Assembly (NCBI GenBank): GCA_964402555.1
Contig: CAYOCT010000004.1
Location: 4,124 to 68,123, forward strand
Length of the DNA: 64,000 nt
Source of the DNA: an uncultured Nitrospiraceae bacterium
Lineage (GTDB): Bacteria; Hydrogenedentota; Hydrogenedentia; Hydrogenedentales; SLHB01
Direction: 5' to 3'
Below the pieces are notes generated by a model, which worked only from the letters and a program-made list of their open reading frames with translations, ran no database searches and was not told the origin of the DNA. The first letter of the stretch is position 1. Every line of letters starts with the position of its first letter. The position numbers were made by a program, and so were the translations under genes. Positions 13,203-27,677 of the stretch are shown here, one piece after another.

Positions 13203-13305
13203 CCCCGACGGTTCACACGATGTCCTGAGGAGACCAGGTTAACGTTTGGTTGGATGAACCCTTCTGTCTCGGAACTCGGCGTGAACTCGAAGACAGTTTG
13301 TCCCG

Positions 13306-13411
13306 TGTCATTGCGAGGAGGGCTTCAGCCCGACGAAGCAATCCCCTGATCTTCAGCATACAACAGTTGGGAGATTGCTTCGTCGGGCTGAAGCCCTCCT
13401 CGCAATGACAC
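13306..13411. repeat. REP/MITE-like palindrome, copy 2 of 3 (arms ~42 bp GTGTCATTGCGAGGAGGGCTTCAGCCCGACGAAGCAATCCC, 23-bp spacer)
   Basis: A near-perfect inverted repeat read directly. It shares the GTCATTGCGAG...CGAAGCAATC core with the other two copies and lies between convergent genes. Confidence 0.7.
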
Positions 13412-13430: not shown

Positions 13431-15395
13431 TCAGTCCCCGCCCTTCAAAGTTACCGTGCACGTCGCGTCGTACTCGGACACAACCTCACCCGCTTTCCAT
13501 GCGCGCTTCCCGCCGATGAAATTCAGATACAGTTCGTCGGTGAATCGCGCGCGGTCGGCCTTTGTCGCGCCGCAGTAGAGGGCGCGCATCGGCTTGGGGG
13601 CCTGAATGTGAAGGACGCCGTCGACGTCGATCGAGGAAACGGTTGCTTCGATCTGCGTGCCATCGCCCGAGCGGACGACGTGACTCTCGCCACCCAGGAC
13701 GATTGATCGTTCGCCGCGCTCGTATACCCAGTGCGGGTTGTTGAGGATGCCGATAAGGCCCGTAGCGACTTCCTCCGTCTCGACGTCTTGAAGCGCGACG
13801 ATCTTCTCGCGTACGCGCCACGTGCCATCCGATTCGGAGTGAAGATCGAGCGTCGCGCGAAACATGCCGTCGCCATGATCCAGTTCCAGCGAGGCGTCGA
13901 ATCGATTCGCTTCGTCGATCACACCAACATGCCGGACATATAGAGGCAGATCGTTCTTCGCGCCCGCGAGGCGGATATGTCCGATGCCGCTACGCGCATG
14001 CGGCGAGGTCAGCCGGTCGCGTTGAAAGACGTTGATCTGCGCCATGACCTGCGCGCCCCAACTGAATGTGGCGATCACGACGGGCGTGCGATTCAGAATG
14101 ATGCGCGCGCCGTCGAGCCGCAACACGCCTGGAAGAACGGGCGGCGTGTCTGTCTCCGCTTTTCCTACTTCTGCGATGGGACCGTGGTAACGAAGCGCAA
14201 GCCACGCCATGGCGTCGTAGTAGATCAAGTCCGACAGCGTTGACGGGAAGAAGAACTCGTCGTCGAGGAAGACGGTTCCCGAGGGCGATCGCGCCTGCAT
14301 GCGTTCCTGCGTTTCGAGGCAAGGCAGCATGAGCGCCCAGCCGTCCGGGTCCCCGCCCTGAGTTGCCATGAGCAGGTGCGTGTACAGCCACTCGGGGTCG
14401 CGCAACAGTTCCCAGTCCTGCCCGTTCGGATACACGAGTCCGCCGCTTGGCAGCGAGAAGCGTTTGAGCACAGCGTAGATGCCCGCGCAGTTGTACGTTG
14501 TGGACTGCGGCGCGCGCCGCCCGCTCATCGTGAAATCGAGCAGGCACGACATCGACAACGGGAACGTGGCCATGTAGTCCGGATGCACTCGGCCGTGGTT
14601 TTCGAGCGTGAAGTCGTCGTAGATGTTCGCGCCGGTGAACTGTTCCGCCACGGTCCGCCCGTCGACAATCTCTTGCGAATGTTCGTCCGCGGGACGCAGG
14701 AAGGACGACAGCGCCCATTTCTGGAACGCCGCTTCCCACTCCGCACGCCGCGAGTCATCCGGCATAATCGTTATCGCGACCGAGAGGATCTGGCTGTTCC
14801 ACGCATTCTCTTCCGCCTTCGTATCGTCGACGATTTGGTGCGGCGGTTCGGTATGCGCGATACGGTCCGCCTCGTGGGCGACGACCTTGCGGACGGATGC
14901 ATGCAGATCCTCGGGCAGGTCGTCCCATGTCCACCATGCCGCGCGGCCGAGCATGTGCGCCCAATGCGCCGATTGCCATTGGCTGCCCCAGGATTTCCCG
15001 TCGCTCGTCGGCCGCGACCCCGTGAGATGCACCGCCGCGAGATACCGCATCATCGGGATGATCGTGTCTTGTAGCAGACGTTCCTTGGAAACGCCCACAA
15101 CCGACGCGTCGTACGGTCCGAATCGGTAGAGAAAGGCCAAGCCCGCGACGGTACCGGTGTTGGGCCGTATCCAATGCTCGTTGCTCTTGCTTTCGGTGAT
15201 CAGTTTCAGCGCCGGATCGGCGTCCCACGGGTGGACTTTGGTTAACAGATTGGACGCCTGTTTCTCGACCGACACGTACATGCGCGAGGCGATGTCTGGC
15301 GCGCTGGCCGGCGCTGGCACATCCGCCGACGGCTCAACGATGGGTAACACGTTCGTGGCCGCCGCAACCGTTAGGAGCGCGCAGAAGAGCAGCAT
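13431..15395 (-). CDS. hypothetical secreted protein (possibly polysaccharide lyase/heparinase II/III-like)
   Basis: 654-aa ORF with a signal peptide (MLLFCALLTVAAA) and Trp/His-rich segments (WGSQWQSAHWAHMLGRAAWW) reminiscent of alpha/alpha-toroid lyases. The functional call is speculative. Confidence 0.55.
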   Translation of the reverse strand: MLLFCALLTVAAATNVLPIVEPSADVPAPASAPDIASRMYVSVEKQASNLLTKVHPWDADPALKLITESKSNEHWIRPNTGTVAGLAFLYRFGPYDASVVGVSKERLLQDTIIPMMRYLAAVHLTGSRPTSDGKSWGSQWQSAHWAHMLGRAAWWTWDDLPEDLHASVRKVVAHEADRIAHTEPPHQIVDDTKAEENAWNSQILSVAITIMPDDSRRAEWEAAFQKWALSSFLRPADEHSQEIVDGRTVAEQFTGANIYDDFTLENHGRVHPDYMATFPLSMSCLLDFTMSGRRAPQSTTYNCAGIYAVLKRFSLPSGGLVYPNGQDWELLRDPEWLYTHLLMATQGGDPDGWALMLPCLETQERMQARSPSGTVFLDDEFFFPSTLSDLIYYDAMAWLALRYHGPIAEVGKAETDTPPVLPGVLRLDGARIILNRTPVVIATFSWGAQVMAQINVFQRDRLTSPHARSGIGHIRLAGAKNDLPLYVRHVGVIDEANRFDASLELDHGDGMFRATLDLHSESDGTWRVREKIVALQDVETEEVATGLIGILNNPHWVYERGERSIVLGGESHVVRSGDGTQIEATVSSIDVDGVLHIQAPKPMRALYCGATKADRARFTDELYLNFIGGKRAWKAGEVVSEYDATCTVTLKGGD

Positions 15396-15475: not shown

Positions 15476-15565
15476 GTGTGTCATTGCGAGCGCAGCGAAG
15501 CAATCCCCTGGTCCGTTGTATGCAGAAGACCAGGGGATTGCTTCGTCGGGCTGAAGCCGCTCCTC
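15476..15565. repeat. REP/MITE-like palindrome, copy 3 of 3 (chimeric arms GTGTGTCATTGCGAGCGCAGCGAAGCAATCCCCTGGTC / GACCAGGGGATTGCTTCGTCGGGCTGAAGCCGCTCC)
   Basis: The left arm matches the copy-1 subtype (GCGAGCGCAGCGAAGCAATC). The right arm matches the copy-2 subtype (GGCTTCAGCCCGACGAAGCAATC). Only the CGAAGCAATCCCCTGGTC part pairs perfectly. Confidence 0.65.
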
Positions 15566-15821: not shown

Positions 15822-17570
15822 CTACGCTAGCGATTCCCGGATCCATCCGAGCAGATGTCGCGCGCGAGCCGATGCGGTGTGATGGCGCCTCAAATGCTCG
15901 TGTCCCGCGTGGGCGATGCGCGCCGCTTCGTCGGGATGCGCCAGCAAGTGCTCGAGCTTCTCGCGCAATTCATCGAGGTCTTCGAAGAAGACGGCGGTTT
16001 CGCCGTCGCGGAAGTTGTGCGGGATACGAATGGGCGGCGGCTCCGAAAACAGCAGGCAGCCTTGTGCGGGGAGTTCGTAGTAGCGAACGGTGTCGAACCC
16101 CGCGCCGAAGGCGCTCAAGCCGATGCGCGCATCGCGAATACGCTGGATGTACTCGCCCGGAGGGTACACGTGATCGAAACGTTCGCCAAGAACGCTCTCG
16201 ATCGTTCGGAGGTAAACTTCGCGCAATCCCGGCCAGCGCTGCCCGGCCCAGAAGAACGCGGTGGGGCGTTCGTTCGCGATGTCGGACGCGACGCGCGCGT
16301 CAGGATGGGCGAACGGCAACGGAAATACGCGCGGCCCATAGTCAACGCACGCGAGCATCTCGCGTTTGAAGCATGCTTGCGCGCCGCCGCGCCCCATATA
16401 GGCGAGAGTCTCCCGCGAGTGATCGACACACTCGTCTTGCGCGTCGATCAAGAACAGCGGCGTCGATCCGGCAGCATCGAGGATCGCGCGCGCGGCCTCG
16501 CGTTCGAGCGCCTGTTCCATGTCACCGTAGAGGATGTAATCGAATTGGCCCTGCCGCAGTTCGGCCACGAAAGCGTCGAGGCCGAGCGGCTCGCCCGCGT
16601 GGTCGCATGCGCAGGGATAATGCGCGAGTTCCGGGGGCGGCTGGCCATGGAGCAGCGGCTTCCAGGGGAACTCGACGACGTTGGCGTCGCCAAGCACGCT
16701 GCATAGTCCATCGAACAACGCGTCGAGGCCGAAATGCGGTCGCGGGTGCGTCACCAGTAGCACGCGAGGCATGCGAGCCGGTTCGACCCAGGCGGGCGGA
16801 TCGGGTTCGACCCAAACAGAACGGACAGCCGGGTACGATTCGATCTGCCGCGCAGTGGCCGGGTTTGGCGCAACCTGCTCCGCAATGCGCAACGTCCGCG
16901 CCGCCATCGTTTCATCGCCGATGCGGCGCCAGAATTCGGACTGGCACATGTAGGCCAAATGGAAATCGGGACAGACCTCGGTAATCTGGTAGAACAACAT
17001 GAGCGACCCGCCGAACAGGAGCAGTTGCCTGCGCGGGTCGCCGGGCCGGTCCATATCGAGCAGACACTGCTGCTTCTGTGCCGCGATGGCCACTTGGGTT
17101 TCGAGACTGTCTCGATACGACTCGGGAATCTCGCACAGAATCTGGTGCGCCCATTCGGGATGGCGTTCGCTCAGACAGGACTGCGCGTGCTCGATGGGCG
17201 CGTAATCGTGCCACACCGCGACGTGAACGCCGGCCGTCTCCGGCGCTTGAAACGCCGTGTAGAGCGCAAGCCCTTCTTCGTCCAGTGCCGGTGCAAGGTC
17301 TTCGCGGTCGACGCCGCCGAGGATGAAGAAGTAGCCGTGCCGCGAGAGGAACCGCGCGAGCTTGGCGCGCTGGACTACGTCGGCGGATTCGCCGAGGATG
17401 ACGGCATCGAAATAGGCATCGGGAAATGGGACGGCCGCCGCGTTGCGGTCAAACGCGCTTAGAGTGACGCCGCGCGTTTCGAGCATGCGCGCTAGCGACG
17501 CGGGAAGTTCGCCGATTTGGAGCACGCGCCGGATGAACAACGGGATGCGGCGCGCCCAGCGGTCTTCCAT
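15822..17570 (-). CDS. fusion protein: methyltransferase-like N-terminal region plus CgeB-like/glycosyltransferase-family-1-like C-terminal domain
   Basis: 582-aa ORF. The N-terminus (AAVPFPDAYFDAVILGE...) looks like a class I MTase fragment. The C-terminus (AFFWAGQRWPGLREVY...RYYELPAQGCLLFSEPP...FRDGETAVFFEDLDELREKLEHLLAHPDEAARIAHAGHEHLRRHHT) is typical of the CgeB/DUF3880-type glycosyltransferase C-terminus. It is the last gene of the peptide operon. Confidence 0.55.
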   Translation of the reverse strand: MEDRWARRIPLFIRRVLQIGELPASLARMLETRGVTLSAFDRNAAAVPFPDAYFDAVILGESADVVQRAKLARFLSRHGYFFILGGVDREDLAPALDEEGLALYTAFQAPETAGVHVAVWHDYAPIEHAQSCLSERHPEWAHQILCEIPESYRDSLETQVAIAAQKQQCLLDMDRPGDPRRQLLLFGGSLMLFYQITEVCPDFHLAYMCQSEFWRRIGDETMAARTLRIAEQVAPNPATARQIESYPAVRSVWVEPDPPAWVEPARMPRVLLVTHPRPHFGLDALFDGLCSVLGDANVVEFPWKPLLHGQPPPELAHYPCACDHAGEPLGLDAFVAELRQGQFDYILYGDMEQALEREAARAILDAAGSTPLFLIDAQDECVDHSRETLAYMGRGGAQACFKREMLACVDYGPRVFPLPFAHPDARVASDIANERPTAFFWAGQRWPGLREVYLRTIESVLGERFDHVYPPGEYIQRIRDARIGLSAFGAGFDTVRYYELPAQGCLLFSEPPPIRIPHNFRDGETAVFFEDLDELREKLEHLLAHPDEAARIAHAGHEHLRRHHTASARARHLLGWIRESLA

Positions 17571-17571
17571 G

Positions 17572-19494
17572 TTACAGCACGTCCGTCGCGATGGTGTACA
17601 CCGCGACGTCGTGATACGCGCCGTGCAAGTACAACGCCTCGCGCTGAACGCCTGCCTGGGTGAAGCCGGCCGATTCGAGAAACGCGCGCAGCCCGGCCTC
17701 TTTCGATGACACGGGCGTCATCAACCGCCGGATCGCCTGTTGGCCGCCGGCCTCTTTCAGGATCGCGCGAAAGCCTTTGCGCACCGTGTCGGACGCGTAG
17801 TCAGCCGGGTCGCGCATGAAGATCCACGCGGTGGCCGTGCCGGGCAAGAGTTCGGGGCGCAGGCGCAGCAGGCCGAACGCCTCGCCGTTGCGCCGGGTCA
17901 GGATGAGTTCGGTCTCGATCGGGCGCGGATGCAGCGCGTCCATTTCGCGGTCGTACTTCGTGCCGAGCAAGAGGCCGCTCTCGTGGCATAGGAAATACGC
18001 CGACTCGCTCCAGTTCTCCCATTGGACCAGCATCTCGGCGTCGGCCTCTTCGATGGGCCGCATGCCGACGGTCATCGTGAGCGCCGCGCGCGCGATCGTT
18101 AAGAGCGACGGCTTGCCTCGGTGCCCGAGTTGTTTGTAGACACGCTCGAAGTTGACGCCCGAAGCCGACAGAATCTGGAACGCGGATACCGCGGCTTCCA
18201 TCCACGCGCGCTGCATGCCGCACCACGGCGCATGCGGCGTCCGGAACGAACCTGACAAAGCATGATGTACCGCGGCCGTGCCGCCTCCGCAGAGGTTGCG
18301 CGCCCAGCACGTCATGCACGCCTGCGTCGTCAGGGCGCCCATGTCATCGAATTGGCGGATGCGGCTCTCGTCGCACACGCCCTCCGCCAGCGAGCCGATG
18401 CGGAACGCGTCGATCCCTTTCATGCGAAGCGACGGATAGATGCCGCCCTGTTCGTCCACGGCCAATTCCTGCGTGCCCGCGGGATCGGAGCGGCGCAACG
18501 GCGTGCCCATGTAAATGCGGTAGAACAAGGACGCGATCGGGTCGAGGCGGAAATCGTGACGCCGCAGCAGACATTGCGCGTAATACACGGCGGAACGTTC
18601 GAGTCCCTCGAGCATGCTCTGCGGATCGAGATCGGGATGCGCGGCAAACGCGGAGTCCAGGTCGAGTTCGATAAACCCGAACCCCGCTTCGTCGAGCGCC
18701 TGCACCGCGCCGCCGTAGGAGGGATGGTCCGGGCGCACGATGATCTGCCCGACGACGCCGGGCGCGTCGGGCTGAAGGATCTTCGAGAGCCGCGCCAGCG
18801 TTTCGCCGGACGCTTTTGCGAGCGCGCGCACATGCGGCGCGGCTTCCTGCGCATCCTGAAACGCGAGGCGGACGTCGACCGTATGGCCGTTCAGAGCTTC
18901 CGGCAGCCGCGCTACGTCGAGGCCGGTCACGCGTACCGACACCGTCAGTTGTTTGCCAGCCACCTTCGCGGACTTCAGGGCAAACGCGCACAACTCCGCG
19001 ATTAGGTCGGGGTTCTCGACGCGCTTGTCCTCGACGAATTCGAGGTGCAGTTCCTTCTGCGCCTCGGAACGCGCGAGCAGCAACGCGACGGCGTCGCGCG
19101 CGAGGTCGCGGCTCGCGGGCAACGGCGCGGGAGACGTGCGTCCGAACCATTGGCGGCGCGCCTGCTCGGCCTTGGGTTCCTCGCGCGACAACGACAGCGA
19201 CATCTGTTTCACGCCGCGTTCGATATCGTAGATCTTGAGGATGTCTTCGCGTTTGGGCGTGGCGAGGATCGACTTGGTGGCTCGCAGCCACTCGAGTTCG
19301 CCGACGACTTCCTCGAGTTCCTTGCGACTATGCTTGGATTCCAGCAGACAATAGATGCGATTGACGGACGTCTGCGGATAGAGGTCCAGCACGTCCCACG
19401 AGATGGGATCGCACTCGAAACAGAAACAGCTCTCCGGGTCCATGGCGAACCGTTTGCCGTCCCGTTCGAAACGATGCAGGAACTCGCGCGGCAT
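17572..19494 (-). CDS. SPASM/twitch-type Cys-rich domain protein with a C-terminal GNAT-like domain and no canonical radical-SAM CxxxCxxC triad
   Basis: ORF 17572..20148 was trimmed to the Met at 19494 (MPREFLHRFERDGKRFAMDPESCFCFEC...), whose ATG overlaps the TGA stop of the upstream permease (ATGA). A SPASM-like motif is present: ACMTCWARNLCGGGTAAVHH...PWCGMQRAWMEA (CxxCx5CGGG). The C-terminal ~200 aa (MRPIEEADAEMLVQWENW...EALYLHGAYHDVAVYTIA) is GNAT-like. The N-terminus has only an unusual C-x-C-x2-C (CFCFEC). Confidence 0.6.
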   Translation of the reverse strand: MPREFLHRFERDGKRFAMDPESCFCFECDPISWDVLDLYPQTSVNRIYCLLESKHSRKELEEVVGELEWLRATKSILATPKREDILKIYDIERGVKQMSLSLSREEPKAEQARRQWFGRTSPAPLPASRDLARDAVALLLARSEAQKELHLEFVEDKRVENPDLIAELCAFALKSAKVAGKQLTVSVRVTGLDVARLPEALNGHTVDVRLAFQDAQEAAPHVRALAKASGETLARLSKILQPDAPGVVGQIIVRPDHPSYGGAVQALDEAGFGFIELDLDSAFAAHPDLDPQSMLEGLERSAVYYAQCLLRRHDFRLDPIASLFYRIYMGTPLRRSDPAGTQELAVDEQGGIYPSLRMKGIDAFRIGSLAEGVCDESRIRQFDDMGALTTQACMTCWARNLCGGGTAAVHHALSGSFRTPHAPWCGMQRAWMEAAVSAFQILSASGVNFERVYKQLGHRGKPSLLTIARAALTMTVGMRPIEEADAEMLVQWENWSESAYFLCHESGLLLGTKYDREMDALHPRPIETELILTRRNGEAFGLLRLRPELLPGTATAWIFMRDPADYASDTVRKGFRAILKEAGGQQAIRRLMTPVSSKEAGLRAFLESAGFTQAGVQREALYLHGAYHDVAVYTIATDVL

Positions 19495-20345
19495 CAATAG
19501 GCCCCCAGCGTCCCCTTGCTGCGGCTCCAGTTCTCGAGAATCTTGAAGAGCGAGATGCCCACGAGCGTCCAGAACACACAACTGATCATCAGAAAGTAGA
19601 ACGACGGATGCGCGAACACGGAACCGGCCACGGTTTCGCCCGCGCTGTTCACGTGGGTCTGGCCCTGGATGAGCACATATTTCAGGCAGATGGCCGCGTC
19701 GGTGATCGGCAGCGCGTGCGCCATCAAACGCCACACGATGCGCCAGCTCTCGACTTTGTCGGTCGCGAGGATCGCCAGGAACAACAACACCATCCGTACC
19801 AGAACCGCCACTTGGCCCGCTTGTTTGAACACGAGCACCAGTCCGCCGACCATGAAACCGAATCCGATCAGATTGAAATACGCCAGCCCGAGCAGCACGG
19901 CTGTGGGCACAAAATCGGCGTGGAGCGTGCCCTTGACGCTTTTCGCGATCAGCCAGATCATCAGCGCGGAACTCAGGATGTTCGTGACGGAACTCACGAT
20001 CGAGCGCGCCATAAAGTTCGTGACCAGTCCGTGCGGGCTCATGCAGAGCTGTTCGAGCTGGCCGCTCTGCGCGAGTTCTTGCAGGCCCTGCGTGAACATG
20101 CCGACGATTGCGAATGCGTACATGCCGACGATCAGGCCGAGCGCCCAATTGGTCGCGGCCTGGCCGCTGGACATAAACTTCGACGCCATCTCGTCGACCG
20201 CGGGACCGCTGGACATAACGCCGAACACCAGCAGCAACAACATGCCGTAGCCAATGAACAGGCCCGTGAGCGTGCGGAACCAGTACCGCCGCATGATGAT
20301 CCAGTTGCGGACCATCTCCGCTTTCATGACTAGAAAGAAACCCAT
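19494..20345 (-). CDS. ABC-2 type transporter permease
   Basis: 283-aa polytopic membrane protein with about six hydrophobic segments. It lies directly downstream of the ABC ATPase. Confidence 0.8.
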   Translation of the reverse strand: MGFFLVMKAEMVRNWIIMRRYWFRTLTGLFIGYGMLLLLVFGVMSSGPAVDEMASKFMSSGQAATNWALGLIVGMYAFAIVGMFTQGLQELAQSGQLEQLCMSPHGLVTNFMARSIVSSVTNILSSALMIWLIAKSVKGTLHADFVPTAVLLGLAYFNLIGFGFMVGGLVLVFKQAGQVAVLVRMVLLFLAILATDKVESWRIVWRLMAHALPITDAAICLKYVLIQGQTHVNSAGETVAGSVFAHPSFYFLMISCVFWTLVGISLFKILENWSRSKGTLGAY

Positions 20346-20397
20346 GCGCCTCCGTGTTCGATCGAAGCGCCCATTATCGTCCGCTTCGCATGCTTCA

Positions 20398-21432
20398 TCA
20401 TTCGCCCTTCCCGCTCTTGGTCAGGCGCAGGAAGACGCTTTCCAGCGACTGCTGCCGTTCGTTTATCGAGCGCAGCCCATAGCCGCGCGCGCGCAACCGC
20501 TCGACCGTGCCGTATAGCGCCTCGCTTCGGAGGTCCGTGCCGGGGTCGACCCAAATGGTCAGCACCGGCGTTTCATCCACCGTCGAAACCTGGGCGTTGC
20601 GCACGCCGGGAACATCGTCGAGATCCGATGGCTCGGGCGCGCGATCGAGTTTGAATTCGAAGACCTGGTCCGAGAAAAGTTCGAGGAGTTCCGTTTTGGG
20701 CTTGCACGCCACGAGCACGCCGTGGTTGATGATCGCGATGCGGTCGCAGATCTCCTGGGCCACGTTCATGTCGTGCGTCGTCACGAGCACGCTCTTGCCC
20801 TGCGTGCGCGTCATCTCGATGACCTTGTCCTTGATGTTCCGGCTGCTCTGCACGTCGAGTCCGGTCGTTGGTTCGTCGAGCAGCAGGACCGGCGGATCCG
20901 CGATCAGCGCGATGCAAATCGCGAGCTTCTGCTTTTCGCCGCGCGAAAGCTGGCGCACCTGGATATTCATCTTGTCTTTGAGGCCGATGAACGCGAGCAA
21001 GTCGGCCGCGCGGCCCTTCAGCACGCGCCCGCGCACGTCCTTCAGGTTGCCGTAGTAGATAAGGTTCTCCATCGGCGTGAGCGGCCAGATGCTCGTGCGC
21101 GTGCCTTCGAGCACCACGCCGACGCGTTTCAAGACCTGCAGGCGCTTCCGCTCGACGTCCATGCCGTCCACGTACACCGTGCCGCCATCGGGCTTGACGA
21201 GCCCCGAGATCATCTTCACGGTCGTCGTCTTGCCCGCGCCGTTCGGGCCGAGCAGGCCGAACACTTCTCCGGGACGAATCCCAAAACAGATGTCCTTTGC
21301 GGCGTGGACAACTTGCCGCTTGTAGAAGGAGCGCTGTCCCGTATCGGTGTCGCGCTGGAAAAAGTGATGCGTCGTGAACAGCTTGTCCACGTGGTCGATC
21401 TCAACCAGATACGATGAATCCGTCATGCGCAC
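20398..21432 (-). CDS. ABC transporter ATP-binding protein (DrrA/ABC-2 exporter type)
   Basis: 344-aa ORF with Walker A (GLLGPNGAGKTTT), the ABC signature (LSRGEKQKL), Walker B (VLLLDEPTTGLD) and an H-loop (TTHDM). Confidence 0.9.
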   Translation of the reverse strand: MRMTDSSYLVEIDHVDKLFTTHHFFQRDTDTGQRSFYKRQVVHAAKDICFGIRPGEVFGLLGPNGAGKTTTVKMISGLVKPDGGTVYVDGMDVERKRLQVLKRVGVVLEGTRTSIWPLTPMENLIYYGNLKDVRGRVLKGRAADLLAFIGLKDKMNIQVRQLSRGEKQKLAICIALIADPPVLLLDEPTTGLDVQSSRNIKDKVIEMTRTQGKSVLVTTHDMNVAQEICDRIAIINHGVLVACKPKTELLELFSDQVFEFKLDRAPEPSDLDDVPGVRNAQVSTVDETPVLTIWVDPGTDLRSEALYGTVERLRARGYGLRSINERQQSLESVFLRLTKSGKGE

Positions 21433-22316
21433 TCCACGAAACGATTTGCGGGCGCGGGCGCGGCGTCAGGCCCGCCCACGTACTCCAGGCACGCGATGCT
21501 CATAGGCAGCACGGGCAGCACCAGGAAGACCAGCAGGCGCTCGCCCTGTGTCAGTTCGGCTTCGCGGGCGGCCGCCTCTTCGCTCTCGAGTTCGTCCACC
21601 CGGATCAGGTATTCCAGAAACGCGATCTCGATATTGCGCACCGCGTGGATCACGATCACGAGGATGAGGCTTCCCGTCGCATAATACAGCGCCCCGAGCG
21701 CGATCGCGAATGCGAAGAACTCGCCCGATTGCAGCGCCGAATTCCGGAAGAAGTGCTCGTGCACGAGCGAAAACGCGATAGCCACGATCACGATGCCGAG
21801 CATGGGGCTTCCCGTCGCGGCGATGGCCAGCGGCTGCGCGCCGACGCGGTAGATGAGTTCCTCGGAAACGCTCACCACGATGAACTGCATGAGCACGCGC
21901 GGACTCTCGACGGCGAAATTCCAGAGCGATCCAAAATCGACGAAGTGCACCGCCGCCGCACTCACCGACCGTTGCGTGATCAGCAGGCTGATGCCGAAGA
22001 TGAGGTGCCCCGCGAGCAGCCCGAGGGCAATGTATACCGGGGAGATGAGATGGCGCGAAAACACGCCCATGTGGCTGCCGAAGTAACATGCCAGCGCGAA
22101 TAGCGCGCTCTGCGCGTAGGCTGCGATCACGGCGTGCCGGCGCGCCGCGCGCTGCAATCCGGTACAACACACGACCAGAAACGGCGGGATTGACAGCGTG
22201 AACGTGGCCAGCGAACCCTGGGCCTCTTGGCCGGGCTTGCCGCGCCGTGCCATCGCCATCGCGAACGCGATGTAGACGGCCAGGGCCGCGAGGAATACGG
22301 CGCCGGCGGCGTTCAC
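21423..22316 (-). CDS. CPBP family intramembrane metalloprotease (CAAX protease / Abi type)
   Basis: 297-aa polytopic ORF carrying the three CPBP motifs: EELIYR (EExxxR), FSLVHEH (FxxxH) and HAVRN (HxxxN). It overlaps the start of the ABC ATPase gene by 10 nt. Confidence 0.8.
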   Translation of the reverse strand: MNAAGAVFLAALAVYIAFAMAMARRGKPGQEAQGSLATFTLSIPPFLVVCCTGLQRAARRHAVIAAYAQSALFALACYFGSHMGVFSRHLISPVYIALGLLAGHLIFGISLLITQRSVSAAAVHFVDFGSLWNFAVESPRVLMQFIVVSVSEELIYRVGAQPLAIAATGSPMLGIVIVAIAFSLVHEHFFRNSALQSGEFFAFAIALGALYYATGSLILVIVIHAVRNIEIAFLEYLIRVDELESEEAAAREAELTQGERLLVFLVLPVLPMSIACLEYVGGPDAAPAPANRFVECA

Positions 22317-22966
22317 CGCGAAGGCTCCGGCGCATCGGCGCCCAAGGCGGCCACGGCCTGCCGGTCCTCGACCATCGAACGGAACAAGGTCCCCGTGGCC
22401 GCGGCGTGTTTCTGGCGGAATGCGTCAAACTCCGAACGCAACAGGCCGTATCCGTATACGTCGAACAACTCGCCGTCGCGCGCGACGTGCCGCGGCAGCG
22501 TGAGTTCCCGCGTCGCGCCAACCTTCTCGATGATGCGCCACGAGGCCGTGTTAAACGCATAGATAAACGCGGCGACGCGGTGCAGGTTCAGTTCGTCGAA
22601 GCAGTACTCCATGGCCCGGAAGAACGCGATGCCCGTCACGAGGCGGTTGCGCAATTTCTTGTTGCCGATGTAGAGGTCGATCGAACACGCGCGGTTGCGC
22701 CAGCTCAGGTTCTGCAACGAGAACAGCCCCACCGCGCCGTAGTCGGGCGAATCGATCATGAGATAGATGCCGCCGGGAAGCGTCTGCCCCGTCGAACGGC
22801 CCAGCATCGTGATCACGTGCTCGCGGATTTGCTTAGGCGAGCGCGCCGGGTCGCCGTAGAGAAAGCGCAGGAAATCCTCGTCCTCCATCCACGCGACCAC
22901 TGTGTCCAAGTCGTCGCGTTCGGCGCGGCGCAGATAGGTTCTACTCGTGAGGGGCATGCTCGGCAC
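22313..22966 (-). CDS. GNAT family N-acetyltransferase
   Basis: 217-aa ORF with a GNAT fold pattern (LRRAERDDLDTVVAWMEDEDF... RNRLVTGIAFFRAMEYCFDELNLHRVAAFIYAFNTASWRIIEKVGATRE). ATGA overlap with the CPBP gene. Confidence 0.75.
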   Translation of the reverse strand: MPSMPLTSRTYLRRAERDDLDTVVAWMEDEDFLRFLYGDPARSPKQIREHVITMLGRSTGQTLPGGIYLMIDSPDYGAVGLFSLQNLSWRNRACSIDLYIGNKKLRNRLVTGIAFFRAMEYCFDELNLHRVAAFIYAFNTASWRIIEKVGATRELTLPRHVARDGELFDVYGYGLLRSEFDAFRQKHAAATGTLFRSMVEDRQAVAALGADAPEPSR

Positions 22967-23519
22967 TCCGTGTTCCCGTCCCGGCCTCGGACGCCGCTAC
23001 GGGACGAAACAGCGACAACGTTTCCGCATTATGCCACCGGCCCAGCGTATAGGTCACCTCGCGCTGCACGCCGTTGCTGGCGAACCCGCGCGCGCGAAGG
23101 AACCCAAGCAGGGCCGTCTCGGAATCCATGGCGTGCGCAATAACTTTGTGCAGTTGCTGCTGGGTGAAGGCCTGCCACAGCAAGAACGCAAGCGCCTCTT
23201 CCGCGACCGGACCCTCGTAGTCGGCGGCATCCGATAGCATAATCACGACTTCGCCGTAACGGGCTTCGGTGTTGATGGAGCGAAGCGTGCAGAACCCGCG
23301 AACCATGCCGTCGTGGGTTTCGACCGCGTACATCAACGGGCGTCCCATTTCCTTCTGGGCCAGCACTTCGCGCAGTTCGTCGCACGTGGGAAAGATAGGC
23401 TCGCGGCGATGGTCCATCAGGCAGCAGCGCGGACAGAGCGGATCGTAATAAACATGCATCGCCACGGCGTCGTCAGGTTCCGCGGCGCGGATGATCGTAT
23501 GTTCCCCTCGGATCATGGC
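22941..23519 (-). CDS. GNAT family N-acetyltransferase (RimJ/RimL-like)
   Basis: Part of ORF 22941..23597. The GNAT core (IRAAEPDDAVAMHVYYDP ... GFCTLRSINTEARYGEVVIMLSDAADYEGPVAEEALAFLLWQAFTQQQLHKVIAHAMDSETALLGFLRARGF) is clear. The start is ambiguous: Met 23597 or the internal MIRGEHT at 23519. Confidence 0.7.
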   Translation of the reverse strand, partial: AMIRGEHTIIRAAEPDDAVAMHVYYDPLCPRCCLMDHRREPIFPTCDELREVLAQKEMGRPLMYAVETHDGMVRGFCTLRSINTEARYGEVVIMLSDAADYEGPVAEEALAFLLWQAFTQQQLHKVIAHAMDSETALLGFLRARGFASNGVQREVTYTLGRWHNAETLSLFRPVAASEAGTGTRSAEHAPHE

Positions 23520-23646
23520 GAACGTCCCATACCTCAGGAGTTCCCCCCACCGGCCCAATGGGGGAACGGCCGGACTCGGCTGCCTGAGAAAAAACACGCC
23601 GGGACTTCAAGCTCTGGAGCCCCGGCGCCGAACGTAGTCCTTCGGC

Positions 23647-23826
23647 TTACCCAATACTGAGTTCGTTCTTCTTCTGTACAACGAAGTCCCCGAACGCCTT
23701 CCAGATCGCGTTAAGGAAATCGCTCTTGGCATCGGCAAAGTCAGGTTCCGCACGGAACGCGCCGCCCGCGCGGCGGGTGGCCATTCTGGAACGGACAACC
23801 GAGACTTTTCCTAAATGTTTCATCAT
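23647..23826 (-). CDS. small peptide A (59 aa; MMKHLGKVSVVRSRMATRRAGGAFRAEPDFADAKSDFLNAIWKAFGDFVVQKKNELSIG), divergent member of the tandem MKH[LV]-peptide family
   Basis: Internal Met of ORF 23647..23865. On the coding strand GGAGACAT sits directly 5' of ATGATGAAACATTTA, giving a strong SD. It shares only the MKHL N-terminus with peptides B-D and lacks their hydrophobic Pro-containing C-terminal segment; its C-terminal half instead looks amphipathic and helical. Confidence 0.5.
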   Translation of the reverse strand: MMKHLGKVSVVRSRMATRRAGGAFRAEPDFADAKSDFLNAIWKAFGDFVVQKKNELSIG

Positions 23827-23952
23827 ATGTCTCCGCATGGTTGGGCAATCTACCCGCCTAGCCATTTTCTACTTCATAGCGAATCCCGGTAAGCGCCCAG
23901 CGGCGCCGCCCTTGGAAGTGCGTTCACGAACTCTGCGCTACGGTCCGAACCG

Positions 23953-24102
23953 TCAGGTTACGATGGTCAGCTTCGCCGACAGGATCGGCTTCAGGGCGCT
24001 CAGTACGGCCACAACGAAATCGACGACCAGAGTCCAAGGGAATGAGGTGGTCTCAGTGGTGGCGTGGCTTGGGGTCCGGGTGATACTGCGAACGTGCTTC
24101 AT
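23953..24102 (-). CDS. small peptide B (49 aa; MKHVRSITRTPSHATTETTSFPWTLVVDFVVAVLSALKPILSAKLTIVT)
   Basis: Internal Met of ORF 23953..24174, with AACGGAGGAAACATTGTTATG (SD GGAGGA, 9-nt spacer). It is a paralog of peptides C and D: a hydrophilic N-terminal ~22 aa followed by a ~25-aa hydrophobic segment with a central AL(K/A/V)PI(L/V) motif. Confidence 0.55.
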   Translation of the reverse strand: MKHVRSITRTPSHATTETTSFPWTLVVDFVVAVLSALKPILSAKLTIVT

Positions 24103-24271
24103 AACAATGTTTCCTCCGTTGTTACCCGCGTGGTTGGCTTCCGCGCCTTGGGTCTGCCCCACGCATGAACCCACTCGACCACGGAAGCTATCCTATACTT
24201 TTACGATTTCCAAGTCAAGCCGTGTGCGCACTTTCGAGCGATCGAGACCGGAGACGCGGCGAGCGTCGCAA

Positions 24272-24424
24272 TCAGCTCGCCGTTTCCGAAGGCTTCAGCG
24301 CCACTACCGCGCTCAGAATGGGCGCCAGCGCCGCCAGAATCTGCAGGAACAGCGTGAGTCCGTCCAGCGGGCTCTGCTCGAACCACGTCAACTCGGCCTT
24401 CGATATGGGCTTGAGATGTTTCAT
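24272..24424 (-). CDS. small peptide C (50 aa; MKHLKPISKAELTWFEQSPLDGLTLFLQILAALAPILSAVVALKPSETAS)
   Basis: Internal Met of ORF 24272..24499. A purine-rich GGAAGGA lies ~12 nt upstream. The first ~30 nt of its coding sequence align with those of peptide D (atgaaRcatctSaaRccSatMtcgaaggcSsagt). Confidence 0.55.
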   Translation of the reverse strand: MKHLKPISKAELTWFEQSPLDGLTLFLQILAALAPILSAVVALKPSETAS

Positions 24425-24520
24425 TCGCTTGACGTCCTTCCATCCGCGCACAGACACGCGCACCCCTGCGGCGGAGCCACGCCCCGCGCCGTGCGGCATC
24501 GTATCGCGGCAGGCCTTCCG

Positions 24521-24670
24521 CTACTCGGCCGGCTGCTTCTTCGTGGCCGATGCGTCCAGAATCAGGGTCACGATGGGCACCAGCGCCGTGACCATCGAGG
24601 TAATCAGCGTGATGATATCGGTCGTCGACACGCTCGACTGCGCCTTCGAGATCGGTTTCAGATGCTTCAT
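24521..24670 (-). CDS. small peptide D (49 aa; MKHLKPISKAQSSVSTTDIITLITSMVTALVPIVTLILDASATKKQPAE)
   Basis: Internal Met of ORF 24521..24769, with AAAGGAAATCCAACGAACATG upstream. It is the first gene of the minus-strand operon. A ~320-bp divergent promoter region lies upstream. Confidence 0.55.
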   Translation of the reverse strand: MKHLKPISKAQSSVSTTDIITLITSMVTALVPIVTLILDASATKKQPAE

Positions 24671-24991
24671 GTTCGTTGGATTTCCTTTCGTTTTGGTCCG
24701 CAACGCTCCATAGGCGGACGTAAGCTGCAACAGTGGTCCCAGTGTACTCCACATAATGGCGCGTTGCAAATTCCCGCCTGGTTTCTCTTAGTATACCGGC
24801 CTCGATGCCAAGTGTTTCATCCGCGGGGAAACTCCCGGATCCCACGTCCATGCTACCTGCGACTCTGGCCCCAGAGCATCCGTTGAGCTACAATACCGCC
24901 TGCCGCATGTCATGAGGATAACGCCAACGGTATGCGGAGCGTTGACAGCCGCGCCGGGGTCCGGTTGGCGCCGGCGATTGAGGGATAAGGA

Positions 24992-25897
24992 ATGCGCCCT
25001 GACGATTCGGGATACAGCCGCCGCGATTTCATGCGCGCCGCCGCGGGCGCGGCGTGTGCCGGCGCCGCGGTCGAAAGTCCAAGCACGTATGCCGCGGCCG
25101 TTCTCGAGCCGGCGCCTGCGCGCTCGCGAGTGGTCTTGGCTCGTGATGCCGCCGTGTTCGATGCCGCGGGCCGTGTCAATGCCGCCGTTGTCCAACGCAT
25201 GCTGGATGCCGGAGTCGCGTCGCTGATGGAAACGGACTGCGCCATGGCATGGCGCCGGATCGCCGGCCCGGGCGATATCGTAGGCGTCAAGACGAACCGC
25301 TGGGAGCACCTGCCAACGCCCGCCCCCGTCGAGGACGCGATCGCGCGCCGTATCGCCGAGGCCGGCGTGTCCTCGAATGCGATCGCCGTTGACGACGCCG
25401 GTGTCCGGACGAATCCTGTGTTCCGAAACGCAACCGCGCTCGTCAACGTCCGGCCGATGCGGACTCATCCTTGGGCGGGTGTTGCGACCCTGGTGCAGAA
25501 CTACCTGGCGTTTGCGGAATGTCCGGCGCAGTGGCATCGCGATGACTGCGCCGACGCCGCGGGCGTGTGGGATTTGCCCGAAGTCCGAGGCAAGACGCGG
25601 CTGAATGTCCTTGTGCTGTTCGCGCCTCTGTTTCACGGCACGGCTCCGTATCATTTTGATGCTCGATACACGTGGGCGTACAACGGAATGATTCTAGGCG
25701 TCGATCCGGTGGCCTGCGACATGGTCGGGCTGCGAATTCTCGAAGCGAAACGCCGCGAGTACTTTGGGCGGGACGTGCCCTTTCCCGTGCCTCCCGCACA
25801 CCTCCGCGCCGCGTCCGAGAAGTATCGCCTCGGCGAAGCGGATTTCGCGCGCATCAATCTGGTCCGGATCGGACCGAGTGACGACAGCCTGGTCTAG
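24992..25897 (+). CDS. DUF362 domain-containing protein with a Tat signal
   Basis: 301-aa ORF with a twin-arginine motif (SRRDFMRAAAGAACAGAA) and the conserved DUF362 C-terminal region (YNGMILGVDPVACDMVGLRILEAKRRE). It is divergent from the peptide operon. Confidence 0.6.
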   Translation: MRPDDSGYSRRDFMRAAAGAACAGAAVESPSTYAAAVLEPAPARSRVVLARDAAVFDAAGRVNAAVVQRMLDAGVASLMETDCAMAWRRIAGPGDIVGVKTNRWEHLPTPAPVEDAIARRIAEAGVSSNAIAVDDAGVRTNPVFRNATALVNVRPMRTHPWAGVATLVQNYLAFAECPAQWHRDDCADAAGVWDLPEVRGKTRLNVLVLFAPLFHGTAPYHFDARYTWAYNGMILGVDPVACDMVGLRILEAKRREYFGRDVPFPVPPAHLRAASEKYRLGEADFARINLVRIGPSDDSLV

Positions 25898-26198: not shown

Positions 26199-27677
26199 AT
26201 GTATCGAACCTTATGCCTGGGAATCGTGTTTGTAGCATGCGTATCGGCGTCCGCCGCACGGGCGGAAGGCCCGCGTCGAATCTTGCTCGCAGGCGACAGT
26301 TGGACGCATTTCATGTTCTTCGACGGGACGTTCCGCGACGTCCTCGACGAACGCGGTTTCACGGACGTCGACTTCATGAATATCGCGCTCGGAGGCACGA
26401 AAGCCTCGCAATGGGCCTCGCCGTTCAAACTCGAGAACACGCGCGGGTATCTTGAAGCCAGCCCGGATATTGACGTGGTATTCATGACGCTCGGCGGCAA
26501 TGACTTGATGTACGGCGAACCGACAAGCTGGTTCGAAAACCACGAGACCCCCGAACAGGAGGATGCGTTCTTCACCTGGATCGCCGACAACGTGGCGGCC
26601 GTCGCGCGCAACATCGTGGAAACGCGTCCCAATATTCACGTCGTTATTTGCGGATACGATTACGTCAACGCCATCAAGAAGGCGGGCAACGACTGCTCGA
26701 CCTCGCCGGAGACGGCGCTCATCATGTGCAATCTGGTCAATGAGGCGATGATCCGCTGCGAGAAAAAGGTCGCGCAGACCGTTAGCGGCATCGAGCGCTG
26801 CCGGTTCGTCAACAATTACGGCGTCTTGCAGCACGAACTCGGATATCCCGGCAGTGTCATTCCCACATGGCTGAGCCCATGGGCCGGCGAGTGCAAGCAT
26901 GCCCCGCATTGGGACCCCACCGGCGTCGACGCGTTCCGCTTCGGCCCCGGCGTCGTGCCGCTGCCCGGCCAACTGGAAGACAATTACACGCCATTCGAAG
27001 GCGGCGATCCGACATTCAAGAAGAGTCCGTGGGAAGCCATGCTGTTCTACGAAAACCAGTGGGCCGATTTGATCCGCGAGTATGGTCTCGATCCGGCGTT
27101 GCTGGGCATCGACAACATGGGTCCGATTGACGACTGGATTCACCTCAGCGCCTTGGGCCACCAAGTCGTGGTACGCCATTGCTTCGACGTGTGCATTGAA
27201 GACTGGATTGCGCAATACGGCTATCCCCGCGTCGCGTCGGTCGAGCGTACGACGATGAGCCCGGTGTGCTCGATCGAGACCTTCAGTCCGATCGGCGCAT
27301 CGCAAGTGCAATTCAAGGTGACGTTCAATCAGCCGGTCACCGGTGTGGATGAGGGCGATTTCGAACCCGTCATGGCGCGCGGCGTGAGCGGCGCATCGAT
27401 CGCAAGCGTTGAGGAACTTAAGGACGGGTCTACGTACATTGTGGCCGTGGATACCGGCAGCGGCGACGGCACGTTGGGCCTCGCGGTGCGCGACAATGAT
27501 ACGATTCAAGGCACGGACGGCCAGCCGTTGTGGGGCATCGGCCACAGCATGAACTGGGCGCCGGGCGAGGCGTACCAGGTAGTGCGCGGTGCGGGCGTTC
27601 CGGTCGTGGGTTGGCCATTGGCGGGGTTCCTGCTGGCCGCGGGCGCCGCGGCACTGCGCCGGCGCAACGCCGCGTAG
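26199..27677 (+). CDS. SGNH/GDSL hydrolase-family secreted protein with a PEP-CTERM-like C-terminal TM anchor and basic tail
   Basis: 492-aa ORF with a signal peptide, a GDSx block (ILLAGDSWTHF) and an LGGND block. The C-terminus VPVVGWPLAGFLLAAGAAALRRRNAA is a hydrophobic helix followed by RRR. The 530-aa antisense ORF 26211..27803 is noise. Confidence 0.8.
   Translation: MYRTLCLGIVFVACVSASAARAEGPRRILLAGDSWTHFMFFDGTFRDVLDERGFTDVDFMNIALGGTKASQWASPFKLENTRGYLEASPDIDVVFMTLGGNDLMYGEPTSWFENHETPEQEDAFFTWIADNVAAVARNIVETRPNIHVVICGYDYVNAIKKAGNDCSTSPETALIMCNLVNEAMIRCEKKVAQTVSGIERCRFVNNYGVLQHELGYPGSVIPTWLSPWAGECKHAPHWDPTGVDAFRFGPGVVPLPGQLEDNYTPFEGGDPTFKKSPWEAMLFYENQWADLIREYGLDPALLGIDNMGPIDDWIHLSALGHQVVVRHCFDVCIEDWIAQYGYPRVASVERTTMSPVCSIETFSPIGASQVQFKVTFNQPVTGVDEGDFEPVMARGVSGASIASVEELKDGSTYIVAVDTGSGDGTLGLAVRDNDTIQGTDGQPLWGIGHSMNWAPGEAYQVVRGAGVPVVGWPLAGFLLAAGAAALRRRNAA

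Follow-up and report, generated by a model that had tools for sequence, protein, structure and literature searches.

A Hydrogenedentota cassette joining small MKH-leader peptide genes to a SPASM/GNAT fusion protein: a candidate route of leader-guided peptide maturation and export

What is made by a locus in which four very small genes are followed, on one strand, by acetyltransferases, an intramembrane protease, an exporter and a protein that resembles a radical S-adenosylmethionine (SAM) enzyme without its cluster motif? The question arises from a 64,000-nucleotide stretch of contig CAYOCT010000004.1 (GenBank assembly GCA_964402555.1, deposited as an uncultured Nitrospiraceae bacterium and placed by GTDB in the Hydrogenedentota), hereafter referred to as the window. 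An earlier note on this DNA had proposed an undescribed locus of the kind that makes peptides that are made by the ribosome and modified after translation (RiPPs) or bacteriocins. Here we describe the gene content, synteny, co-occurrence, homologies and motif loss observed for this locus and its relatives. With a probability of roughly 55%, we favor reading the locus as a cassette for the leader-guided maturation and export of peptides that is widespread in the Hydrogenedentota and specific to them, in which a dead maturase scaffold would serve GNAT acylation, CPBP cleavage and ABC-2 export.

The four peptide genes lie at 23647–24670 on the minus strand, and open reading frames (ORFs), Shine–Dalgarno (SD) motifs and public gene calls agree on them, as the earlier note had it: all four are annotated genes in the public assembly, and each has a GGAG/GGA-type motif 6–12 nucleotides 5′ of its start. 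Peptide A (24521–24670; 49 residues, starting MKHLKPISKAQSS, in full MKHLKPISKAQSSVSTTDIITLITSMVTALVPIVTLILDASATKKQPAE) comprises an MKH leader, a membrane-like hydrophobic helix with a mean hydrophobicity of 0.72 across 18 residues, and a TKKQPAE tail. Together with peptides B (24272–24424; 50 residues, MKHLKPISKAELTWFEQSPLDGLTLFLQILAALAPILSAVVALKPSETAS) and C (23953–24102; 49 residues, MKHVRSITRTPSHATTETTSFPWTLVVDFVVAVLSALKPILSAKLTIVT) it matches a profile hidden Markov model (HMM) of the precursor type that we call class II (E=1.5e-13 to 6e-10). Peptide D (23647–23823; MKHLGKVSVVRSRMATRRAGGAFRAEPDFADAKSDFLNAIWKAFGDFVVQKKNELSIG) is a class I precursor (class I HMM, E=6.8e-19) that can be aligned with 28 orthologues and is made up of a leader, a lineage-specific insert and a conserved amphipathic core, ADAKSDFLNAIWKAFGDFVVQKKNE. 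None of the four peptides contains Cys. Peptides A–C have 49–50 residues, and D has 58 when read from its second ATG (MKHLGKV), a start used by the gene called in the public assembly as well as by the consensus of the family. The description of the four as one family is right in that all are homologous, but D belongs to a separate conserved class. Moreover, the pair whose DNA still aligns is not C and D, which match at only 14 of their first 30 nucleotides, but A and B (24/30, and 28/36 over the first 36).

Are these small ORFs genes, and are they tied to the enzymes beside them? In a scan of one genome per species, relatives of the fusion protein turned up in 227 species. Of the best 80 loci nearly all are labelled Hydrogenedentota, and the others go by different or generic names, for example ‘uncultured Nitrospiraceae’. 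Wherever the flanking sequence sufficed, tblastn recovered in essentially every locus the order GNAT1–GNAT2–CPBP–ATPase–permease–fusion, sometimes with a second GNAT2-like gene; the genes beyond the cassette vary from locus to locus. The fusion protein has more than 120 full-length relatives at 50–66% identity, and the named ones all come from Candidatus Hydrogenedentes/Hydrogenedentota, for which reason the source organism is most likely one of the Hydrogenedentota, and an origin in the Planctomycetota, the phylum put forward earlier for comparison, was rejected. Peptide genes were sought with profile HMMs of both types against all ORFs of all loci, including ~1 Mb of flanking sequence in total, rather than by a simple scan for ATGAARCAY, which undercounts them because many have GTG or TTG starts or MRH/VKH variants. 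Among the 49 loci with at least 900 nucleotides upstream of the first GNAT gene, 42 carry one to six peptide genes directly upstream on the cassette strand, and the peptide HMMs found no match elsewhere in the loci. The arrays consist of zero to five class II genes followed by a class I gene ~100–200 nucleotides before GNAT1, the class I gene always being the one nearest GNAT1; the window layout (II, II, II, I) is typical of related loci.

It could be objected that the window, at 60% G+C, is full of spurious ORFs, that the peptides are named by no database family, and that we might therefore be looking at chance ORFs or remnants beside a plain transporter/acetyltransferase operon. Set against this are ~130 homologous genes in 46 loci, in which reading frame, start, leader and core are conserved and position and strand are fixed. 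The 118 peptide genes with a recognisable start codon (87 ATG, 24 GTG and 7 TTG) have an SD-like motif at −20 to −4 in 116 cases, as compared with 20% of random positions. In a collection of 5.8 billion proteins, moreover, the class I profile matched 131 clusters, all of 38–73 residues and all unnamed or ‘hypothetical’, and the three class I clusters with long contigs that were looked up all lay directly upstream of the same cassette. Because of the HMM co-occurrence, the SD motifs, the peptide-length clusters and the three look-ups, we take the small ORFs to be real genes coupled to the enzyme set; an origin by chance is barely credible and, as judged from these comparative data, effectively refuted. 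The proposed co-variation of peptide genes with the enzyme set is thus borne out from both directions (42/49 loci; 3/3 look-ups started from the peptide), and with clusters all of 38–73 residues there is no sign of fragments of a larger gene. Neighbourhoods that lack the peptides, which the earlier note would have counted against itself, are absent from most of the family but do exist (7/49). The peptides are covered by no Pfam or NCBIfam family. PADLOC, run on peptides and enzymes, gave nothing beyond generic ABC ATPase similarity, and a defence system was rejected on that ground.

The two peptide classes are homologous over their full length (hhalign 95%, E=1.7e-8). They share the leader MKH[ILV][KR]x[ILV][ST], which goes on as [RK]xPx[RK]A in class II and as xx[RK]ADA in class I, and in both the core ends at a nearly invariant Lys that is followed by a short polar tail. 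Class I peptides (consensus MKHI[RK]x[IV][ST]xx[RK]-ADAFxDFxNAxWRAWxDFxYxKKNE, ~39–41 residues) have aromatic, amphipathic cores, with a median maximal hydrophobic moment of 0.54, whose sequences are far better conserved than is usual for bacteriocins; in the window, L004, L007 and L044 (L numbers denote related loci) a lineage-specific insert separates leader and core. In class II the leader (consensus [M/V/L]KH[LVI][RKT]x[IVL][ST][RK]xPx[RK]Ax[D/S/T]) is followed by a helix of ~20–24 hydrophobic residues, the nearly invariant Lys with E/N/D, and a polar tail of ~7 residues; these cores are membrane-like (median maximal mean hydrophobicity 0.65), and subtypes that recur between loci include a two-Cys type and an ‘NKDPQNP’ type. 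Cys is present in only 13 of 132 family cores. One clade (L010, L013, L016, L017, L018, L026, L027 and L032) has an additional GNAT2-like gene, long class II peptides of ~65 residues (‘...TDLSFxLSIL...VKNP’) and the class I variant ADALADLYNAxWQAWLDYVYTKKN, and GNAT number and type of peptide may vary together.

What, then, might recognise the shared leader? The last gene of the cassette (17572–19494, minus strand) encodes a 640-residue protein with an N-terminal domain like the RiPP recognition element (RRE), a radical-SAM barrel without the cluster motif, a SPASM remnant, a linker and a RimL-like GNAT domain; source databases name it only ‘SPASM domain-containing protein’ or ‘GNAT family N-acetyltransferase’. 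With a profile built from 15 family members, residues 4–435 match CteB, the SCIFF/ranthipeptide maturase of Clostridium thermocellum (PDB 5WGG), through RRE, radical-SAM barrel and SPASM (E=6e-38), and residues 522–635 match RimL-type GNATs. An AlphaFold2 model (pLDDT 84, pTM 0.69), in which residues 7–72 form three strands plus helices, gave CteB as its top Foldseek match (5WGG/5WHY, E=2.5e-18, target-normalised TM 0.68–0.72), and the next matches, SpeG and RimL, fall on the C-terminal domain. No other region of the protein is as well conserved as the RRE-like N-terminus. The cluster-binding stretch of CteB, ‘HISHDCNLRCKYC’ (CNLRCKYC), aligns with a Cys-free stretch that forms the lowest-confidence loop of the model (residues 107–124), and opposite ‘FFGGEP’ of CteB stands ‘LEFxExG’. 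None of the 73 family members has CxxxCxxC anywhere, and the fusion protein scores 79.9 bits with TIGR03974, for which the cut-off is 425. Its conserved Cys residues are C393, C396, C402 and C425 (CxxCx5C...C) together with C23, C25 and C28; from the SPASM domain both Cys of CX9-15GX4C are lost and the fourth Cys of CX2CX5CX3C is replaced. Going by the structures of anSME and CteB, we presume that the four retained SPASM Cys are ligands of the second auxiliary cluster. The protein clearly descends from a SCIFF-type radical-SAM/SPASM maturase, and we propose that it is catalytically dead as a radical-SAM enzyme.

Within the RRE-like β-strands, at residues 23–28 (~19411–19428, minus strand), the family has an invariant CFCFEC (CxCxxC), which occurs neither in CteB nor in the outgroup maturases examined and could bind an additional metal within the peptide-binding domain.

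How sharply the family is set apart from ordinary maturases emerged from an exhaustive profile search of 1.84 billion representatives, which returned ~45 fusion-family clusters at 246 bits or more and then dropped sharply to ordinary maturases of 450–490 residues at 178 bits or less; in the outgroup maturases examined, CNLRCxYC, GGEP and the full SPASM motifs are intact. Two divergent GNAT-fused proteins, P0402 (L090, 8001–9923) and P0406 (L092, 1394–3247), are without CxxxCxxC and have a complete set of SPASM Cys. They look, from these motifs, like evolutionary intermediates, and because they keep the full SPASM Cys set, loss of the radical-SAM motif and fusion to the GNAT domain apparently came before loss of the first auxiliary cluster. 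A TolC-like OEP gene comes after the cassette in L090; in L092, genes for three family-2 glycosyltransferases and two methyltransferases lie behind the fusion gene.

The peptides, too, bear some likeness to the substrates of SCIFF maturases (PF13165/TIGR03973 for the precursor, TIGR03974 for ScfB/CteB). The SCIFF consensus reads MKHIKTLNxxTLKxSxKKGGCGECQ..., the CteA fragment in 5WGG is MKHIKILNGSTLKDSLKKGGC, with a leader that starts MKHIKILN..., and the start MKH[IV]K-x-[IL]-[NST] is common to SCIFF peptides and those described here. In hhalign comparisons class II matched SCIFF over just 12 leader columns (77.5%, E=1.9e-5) and class I over just 9 (54%, E=1.2e-4). Taken alone, this leader likeness is too brief to decide the matter, but it falls together with the nearest solved relative of the fusion protein being precisely the SCIFF maturase. 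Searching the Protein Data Bank (PDB) with the class II profile found nothing, and CteA was recovered only with a SCIFF sequence as query; text searches for MKHIK-type strings in papers gave unrelated matches only. The CteA leader binds the RRE of CteB by extending its β-sheet (PMC6231123). SCIFF peptides occur throughout the Clostridia, a distribution that was read as favoring signalling over an antimicrobial role (PMC8326336). The systems described here resemble the SCIFF/ranthipeptide class in that the fusion protein aligns from RRE through barrel to SPASM, in the pattern of the first eight leader positions and in a distribution across a whole lineage rather than a sporadic one. They differ, however, in that SCIFF precursors have six C-terminal Cys whereas the window peptides are Cys-free and were matched by neither PF13165 nor TIGR03973 even at E≤1–10; in the lack of CxxxCxxC and GGE from the fusion protein, with four SPASM Cys instead of the full set for two clusters; in the fused GNAT, the two further GNATs, the CPBP protease and the ABC-2 pump that are always attached here; and in their occurrence in Hydrogenedentota rather than Clostridia.

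In common with RiPP loci in general, the cassette has precursor genes with a conserved leader and a variable core beside enzymes, and an RRE-like domain, homologous to that of CteB, that is predicted to bind the leader. Selidamides, in which Lys or Orn side chains are acylated by GNATs (PMC8784127), and related lipopeptides likewise have ribosomal precursors beside GNAT-superfamily maturases, of which there are three modules here, and their acylation, which gives amphiphilic products, would fit the nearly invariant Lys. Selidamide precursors, however, have Nif11/NHLP (proteusin-type) leaders and cyclic cores, whereas the leader here is ~12–16 residues long, the GNATs are of the Acetyltransf_3 type (RimL/AAC(6′)-like) and recognition would go through a dead radical-SAM scaffold; since a Nif11/NHLP leader is lacking, we do not regard the locus as selidamide-type. 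The operon logic is also that of the epipeptide operon of Bacillus subtilis (yydFGHIJ/epeXEPAB), where genes for a small peptide and a radical-SAM/SPASM enzyme stand with those for a membrane protease and an ABC-2-type transporter; there, however, the radical-SAM enzyme works as an epimerase, the protease is of a different family and GNATs are absent.

Could the peptides instead be unmodified membrane-active molecules, akin to phenol-soluble modulins (PSMs) or to leaderless or class II bacteriocins, that are secreted by the ABC-2 pump, with the CPBP protein and the GNATs serving self-protection only, for example by acetylating stray intracellular peptide, and with the dead maturase acting as a chaperone or secretion adaptor? 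Class II bacteriocin loci, staphylococcal PSM/Pmt and MroQ/AgrD do share with the cassette small helical peptides of hydrophobic or amphipathic character, a CPBP-family membrane protein and a dedicated ABC pump. The membrane-like class II cores and amphipathic class I cores, the DrrA/ABC-2-type exporter, the frequent service of CPBP/Abi proteins as bacteriocin immunity proteins and the missing canonical coenzyme A (CoA) loop in two of the three GNAT modules would all suit this explanation. What makes us consider it unlikely is that strong purifying selection has kept three or four GNAT modules and an RRE-bearing scaffold throughout a phylum, that the leader is conserved and SCIFF-like, and that the class I cores evolve slowly for bacteriocins. 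In addition, the leader logo has no GG/GA site and no C39 peptidase is fused to the ABC protein: the ATPase has an ABC_tran domain only and the permease is a separate ABC-2-type protein. Lacking both a double-glycine leader and a C39-ABC protein, the locus is not of the class II bacteriocin type, and from bacteriocin and PSM loci alike it differs in its GNATs, RRE scaffold, phylum-wide spread and slowly evolving class I cores. The presence of the system throughout a phylum also argues against an ordinary strain-specific bacteriocin. Literature searches on Hydrogenedentes RiPPs, on SPASM, GNAT and precursor combinations and on radical-SAM proteins without CxxxCxxC beside acetyltransferases found no published description of the system. 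The earlier placement of the locus outside the described RiPP classes therefore stands: it departs from SCIFF, selidamide and class II bacteriocin systems, and we regard the enzyme architecture of this RiPP-like locus as unprecedented.

Between the peptide array and the fusion gene, all on the minus strand, lie five further genes. GNAT1 (22941–23516; Pfam Acetyltransf_3/4) is paralogous to the fusion protein's GNAT domain (BLASTP to the fusion C-terminus, E=7e-11) and has a non-canonical ‘ADYEGP’ at the place of the usual CoA pyrophosphate loop (Q/RxxGxG/A); a ‘[DE]xADY’ stretch replaces this loop in both. GNAT2 (22313–22957; Pfam Acetyltransf_3, E=1.8e-18), unrelated at the BLAST level to GNAT1 and to the fusion GNAT, is the most conserved cassette protein, with 54–72% identity across loci, and is nearest to amine acetyltransferases of the AAC(6′)/SpeG type and weakly PseH-like; in the PDB it matches 6ERD (E=2.5e-10). 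A CPBP/Rce1-like glutamic intramembrane protease follows (21423–22316, with an uncertain start codon; PF02517, E=1.5e-12), in which the motifs EExxxR, FxxxH and HxxxN pointed out in the earlier note all occur and show conservation within the family. That such a protease can mature a peptide signal is illustrated by MroQ, which is of the CPBP kind and takes part in processing the AgrD pheromone. Export would fall to a DrrA-like ABC transporter ATPase (20398–21426; PF00005; TIGR01188, 231 bits) and an ABC-2-type permease (19494–20345) that is syntenic in all loci; the window permease has no Pfam match, and its orthologues match ABC2_membrane_3 weakly. The chain of overlapping genes from GNATs to fusion protein that had been read as one coupled operon is real as regards its overlaps and near-overlaps, among them the single base shared by the fusion ATG and the permease stop, but some details hinge on the choice of start codon. 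The 26-nucleotide overlap between the GNAT genes presumes a GTG start of GNAT2 and shrinks to 17 nucleotides with the family-consistent ATG at 22957, and GNAT1 most likely starts at ATG 23516 rather than at GTG 23597, with a hairpin and U-run lying between peptide D and GNAT1.

Next in line is a gene for a 582-residue CgeB-like glycosyltransferase (15822–17570, minus strand) with a C-terminal PF13524 (Glyco_trans_1_2) match (E=1.3e-20). The earlier note had counted it into the operon as a methyltransferase/CgeB fusion. The glycosyltransferase half of that description is supported, but the N-terminus is degenerate and methyltransferase-like, with sub-threshold Methyltransf_11/25 matches only, and, apart from the window, L007 is the only one of the 80 loci in which the cassette has a homologue behind it. 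Because of this distribution we treat the gene as an accessory neighbour; as a core component it was rejected, since it is not syntenic.

Glycosyltransferases after the cassette in the window, L007 and L092 bring up a further alternative, in which the substrate is not a peptide at all: the enzymes would N-acetylate, and the ABC-2 pump export, an amino-sugar polymer, a polyamine or a lipid, and the peptides would be membrane-embedded accessory or regulatory subunits. The nearest relatives of GNAT2 are indeed small-molecule N-acetyltransferases (AAC(6′), SpeG and, weakly, PseH), ABC-2 pumps commonly export glycans, and 7 of 49 loci as well as L090 have no adjacent peptides. We think this rather improbable, however, given that homology to a peptide maturase runs through the entire central protein, which is best conserved in its peptide-binding domain, that the peptides have the matching SCIFF-type leader, that the glycosyltransferase neighbours are sporadic (1/80 loci by tblastn, plus the window) and that the array has the position and orientation of precursor genes and is set off from the enzymes by a terminator.

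That terminator-like element, a GC-rich hairpin CGCCGGGGCUCC...GAAGUCCCGGCG followed by UGUUUUUU (23588–23626, minus strand), was found by RNA folding between peptide D and GNAT1 and resembles a terminator or attenuator. In 40 of 45 related loci a hairpin and U-run lie within 200 nucleotides after the class I stop, mostly ~55–65 nucleotides downstream, and the same stem CCGGGRC...GTCCCGG is often reused. A hairpin between precursor and enzyme genes is the usual design for keeping the precursor transcript above the enzyme transcript. The conservation exceeds what a generic terminator needs, and for this reason the class I hairpin might also act as a regulatory RNA or be bound by a protein. The stem CCGGGRCYYC...GAAGTCCCGG and the U-run behind it are kept in sequence and position in the window, L004, L009, L010, L016, L017, L019, L026, L030, L032 and others. 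Folding gave hairpins after peptides A–C that were no better than in shuffled sequences; a scan for consensus promoters and terminators gave counts not above shuffles and missed the long-loop hairpin that folding found. The array promoter presumably lies in the upstream intergenic region (24671–24991, minus strand), in which no sigma-70 consensus was found, and Rfam had no match in 23300–25300. The product of the divergent gene that begins at 24992 (24992–25897, plus strand) has a Tat signal and matches DUF362 weakly; the gene is not conserved beside the cassette elsewhere.

The synteny across 80 loci and the co-occurrence in 42 of 49 support the earlier view of a RiPP-like locus composed of precursor array, tailoring enzymes, CPBP protein and ABC exporter. 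How might it work? In the pathway that we propose, the SAM cluster, the first auxiliary cluster and the GGE motif for SAM binding are gone from the fusion protein, which has kept the RRE, the barrel scaffold and the four-Cys site and has gained a GNAT domain. Without radical chemistry of its own, it would dock the MKH leader on its RRE by β-strand addition, as CteB does with CteA, and so present the core to its own GNAT, GNAT1 and GNAT2, which would acetylate or acylate an amine. The acceptor would most plausibly be the conserved Lys near the helix end or a new N-terminal Ala exposed after the [RK]-A junction. N-terminal acetylation occurs in goadsporin and microviridin. The CPBP protease would then cut off leader and/or tail, and the ABC-2 transporter would export the product or protect the producer, while the hairpin terminator after the last peptide gene would give a high ratio of peptide to enzyme transcript. 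Leader binding, acylation, cleavage sites, export and a biological role as signal, surfactant or antagonist are all steps that we infer. More tentatively, we suggest that ribosomal peptide pathways have here a new class, with a dead radical-SAM protein as the leader-docking scaffold for GNATs, by which nearly every member of this uncultured phylum would produce linear helical peptides acylated at Lys or at the N-terminus; this is possible, though less likely than not. Trimming of the tail after an acylated Lys by an Rce1-like CPBP protease would, speculatively, make a bacterial counterpart to the CAAX processing that follows lipidation.

Several points weigh against a leader-guided maturation and export cassette. 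Seven of the 49 loci carry the enzymes without adjacent peptide genes: in L077, L081 and L083 MnmE ends 72 nucleotides before GNAT1, and L033, L041, L042 and L045 are without both GNAT1 and peptides (in L041 a gene for an RND pump abuts GNAT2). The divergent cassette of L090 also has no MKH peptide gene nearby, and, as these eight loci show, the enzymes can exist without neighbouring precursors. The peptides of such genomes may be encoded elsewhere, the N-terminal CFCFEC is kept in peptide-less loci wherever it was checked, and the joint absence of GNAT1 and peptides hints that these form a sub-unit of the cassette. The leader likeness to SCIFF spans only 9–12 residues and falls below significance with the Pfam and NCBIfam SCIFF models. 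GNAT1 and the fusion GNAT, to judge from their altered CoA loops, may be inactive or may use a different donor. Phylum-wide conservation is unusual for an antimicrobial. Function throughout is inferred from homology and gene context, and our suggestions for the acyl group, acceptor residue and cleavage sites are guesses.

Apart from the cassette, two palindromic repeats in the window, at 13305–13411 (42-nucleotide arms, 98% complementary, with a 23-nucleotide loop) and at 15489–15558 (95% complementary to the first copy over 44 nucleotides), flank a gene for a 654-residue protein (13431–15395) and generate spurious ‘GLLRRAEALLAMT’-type ORFs. A secreted GDSL-lipase-like protein (26199–27677, plus strand) ends in a hydrophobic helix and RRRNAA (GWPLAGFLLAAGAAALRRRNAA); this C-terminus resembles an exosortase/CPBP-type sorting signal, and NCBIfam gave no match for it.

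If the proposed pathway is correct, it would represent a new evolutionary route in which a radical-SAM/SPASM enzyme loses its chemistry while its leader-recognition domain and scaffold are reused for another class of enzyme. Mining tools that depend on a complete radical-SAM motif, on leaders of known families or on known precursor models will miss the cassette, and the short leader together with the GNATs might find use in leader-guided peptide acylation. The reasoning applied to the lineage-wide SCIFF peptides, against an antimicrobial and for a signalling role, applies here as well, above all to class I, and the question of role parallels the open one on SCIFF peptides in Clostridia. With the cassette in at least 227 species-level genomes and a class I peptide that evolves slowly, a signal or an envelope or surface factor seems likelier than a weapon. 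For the Hydrogenedentota, which are represented in these collections almost only by metagenome-assembled genomes, the cassette offers a specific and testable handle on their biology.

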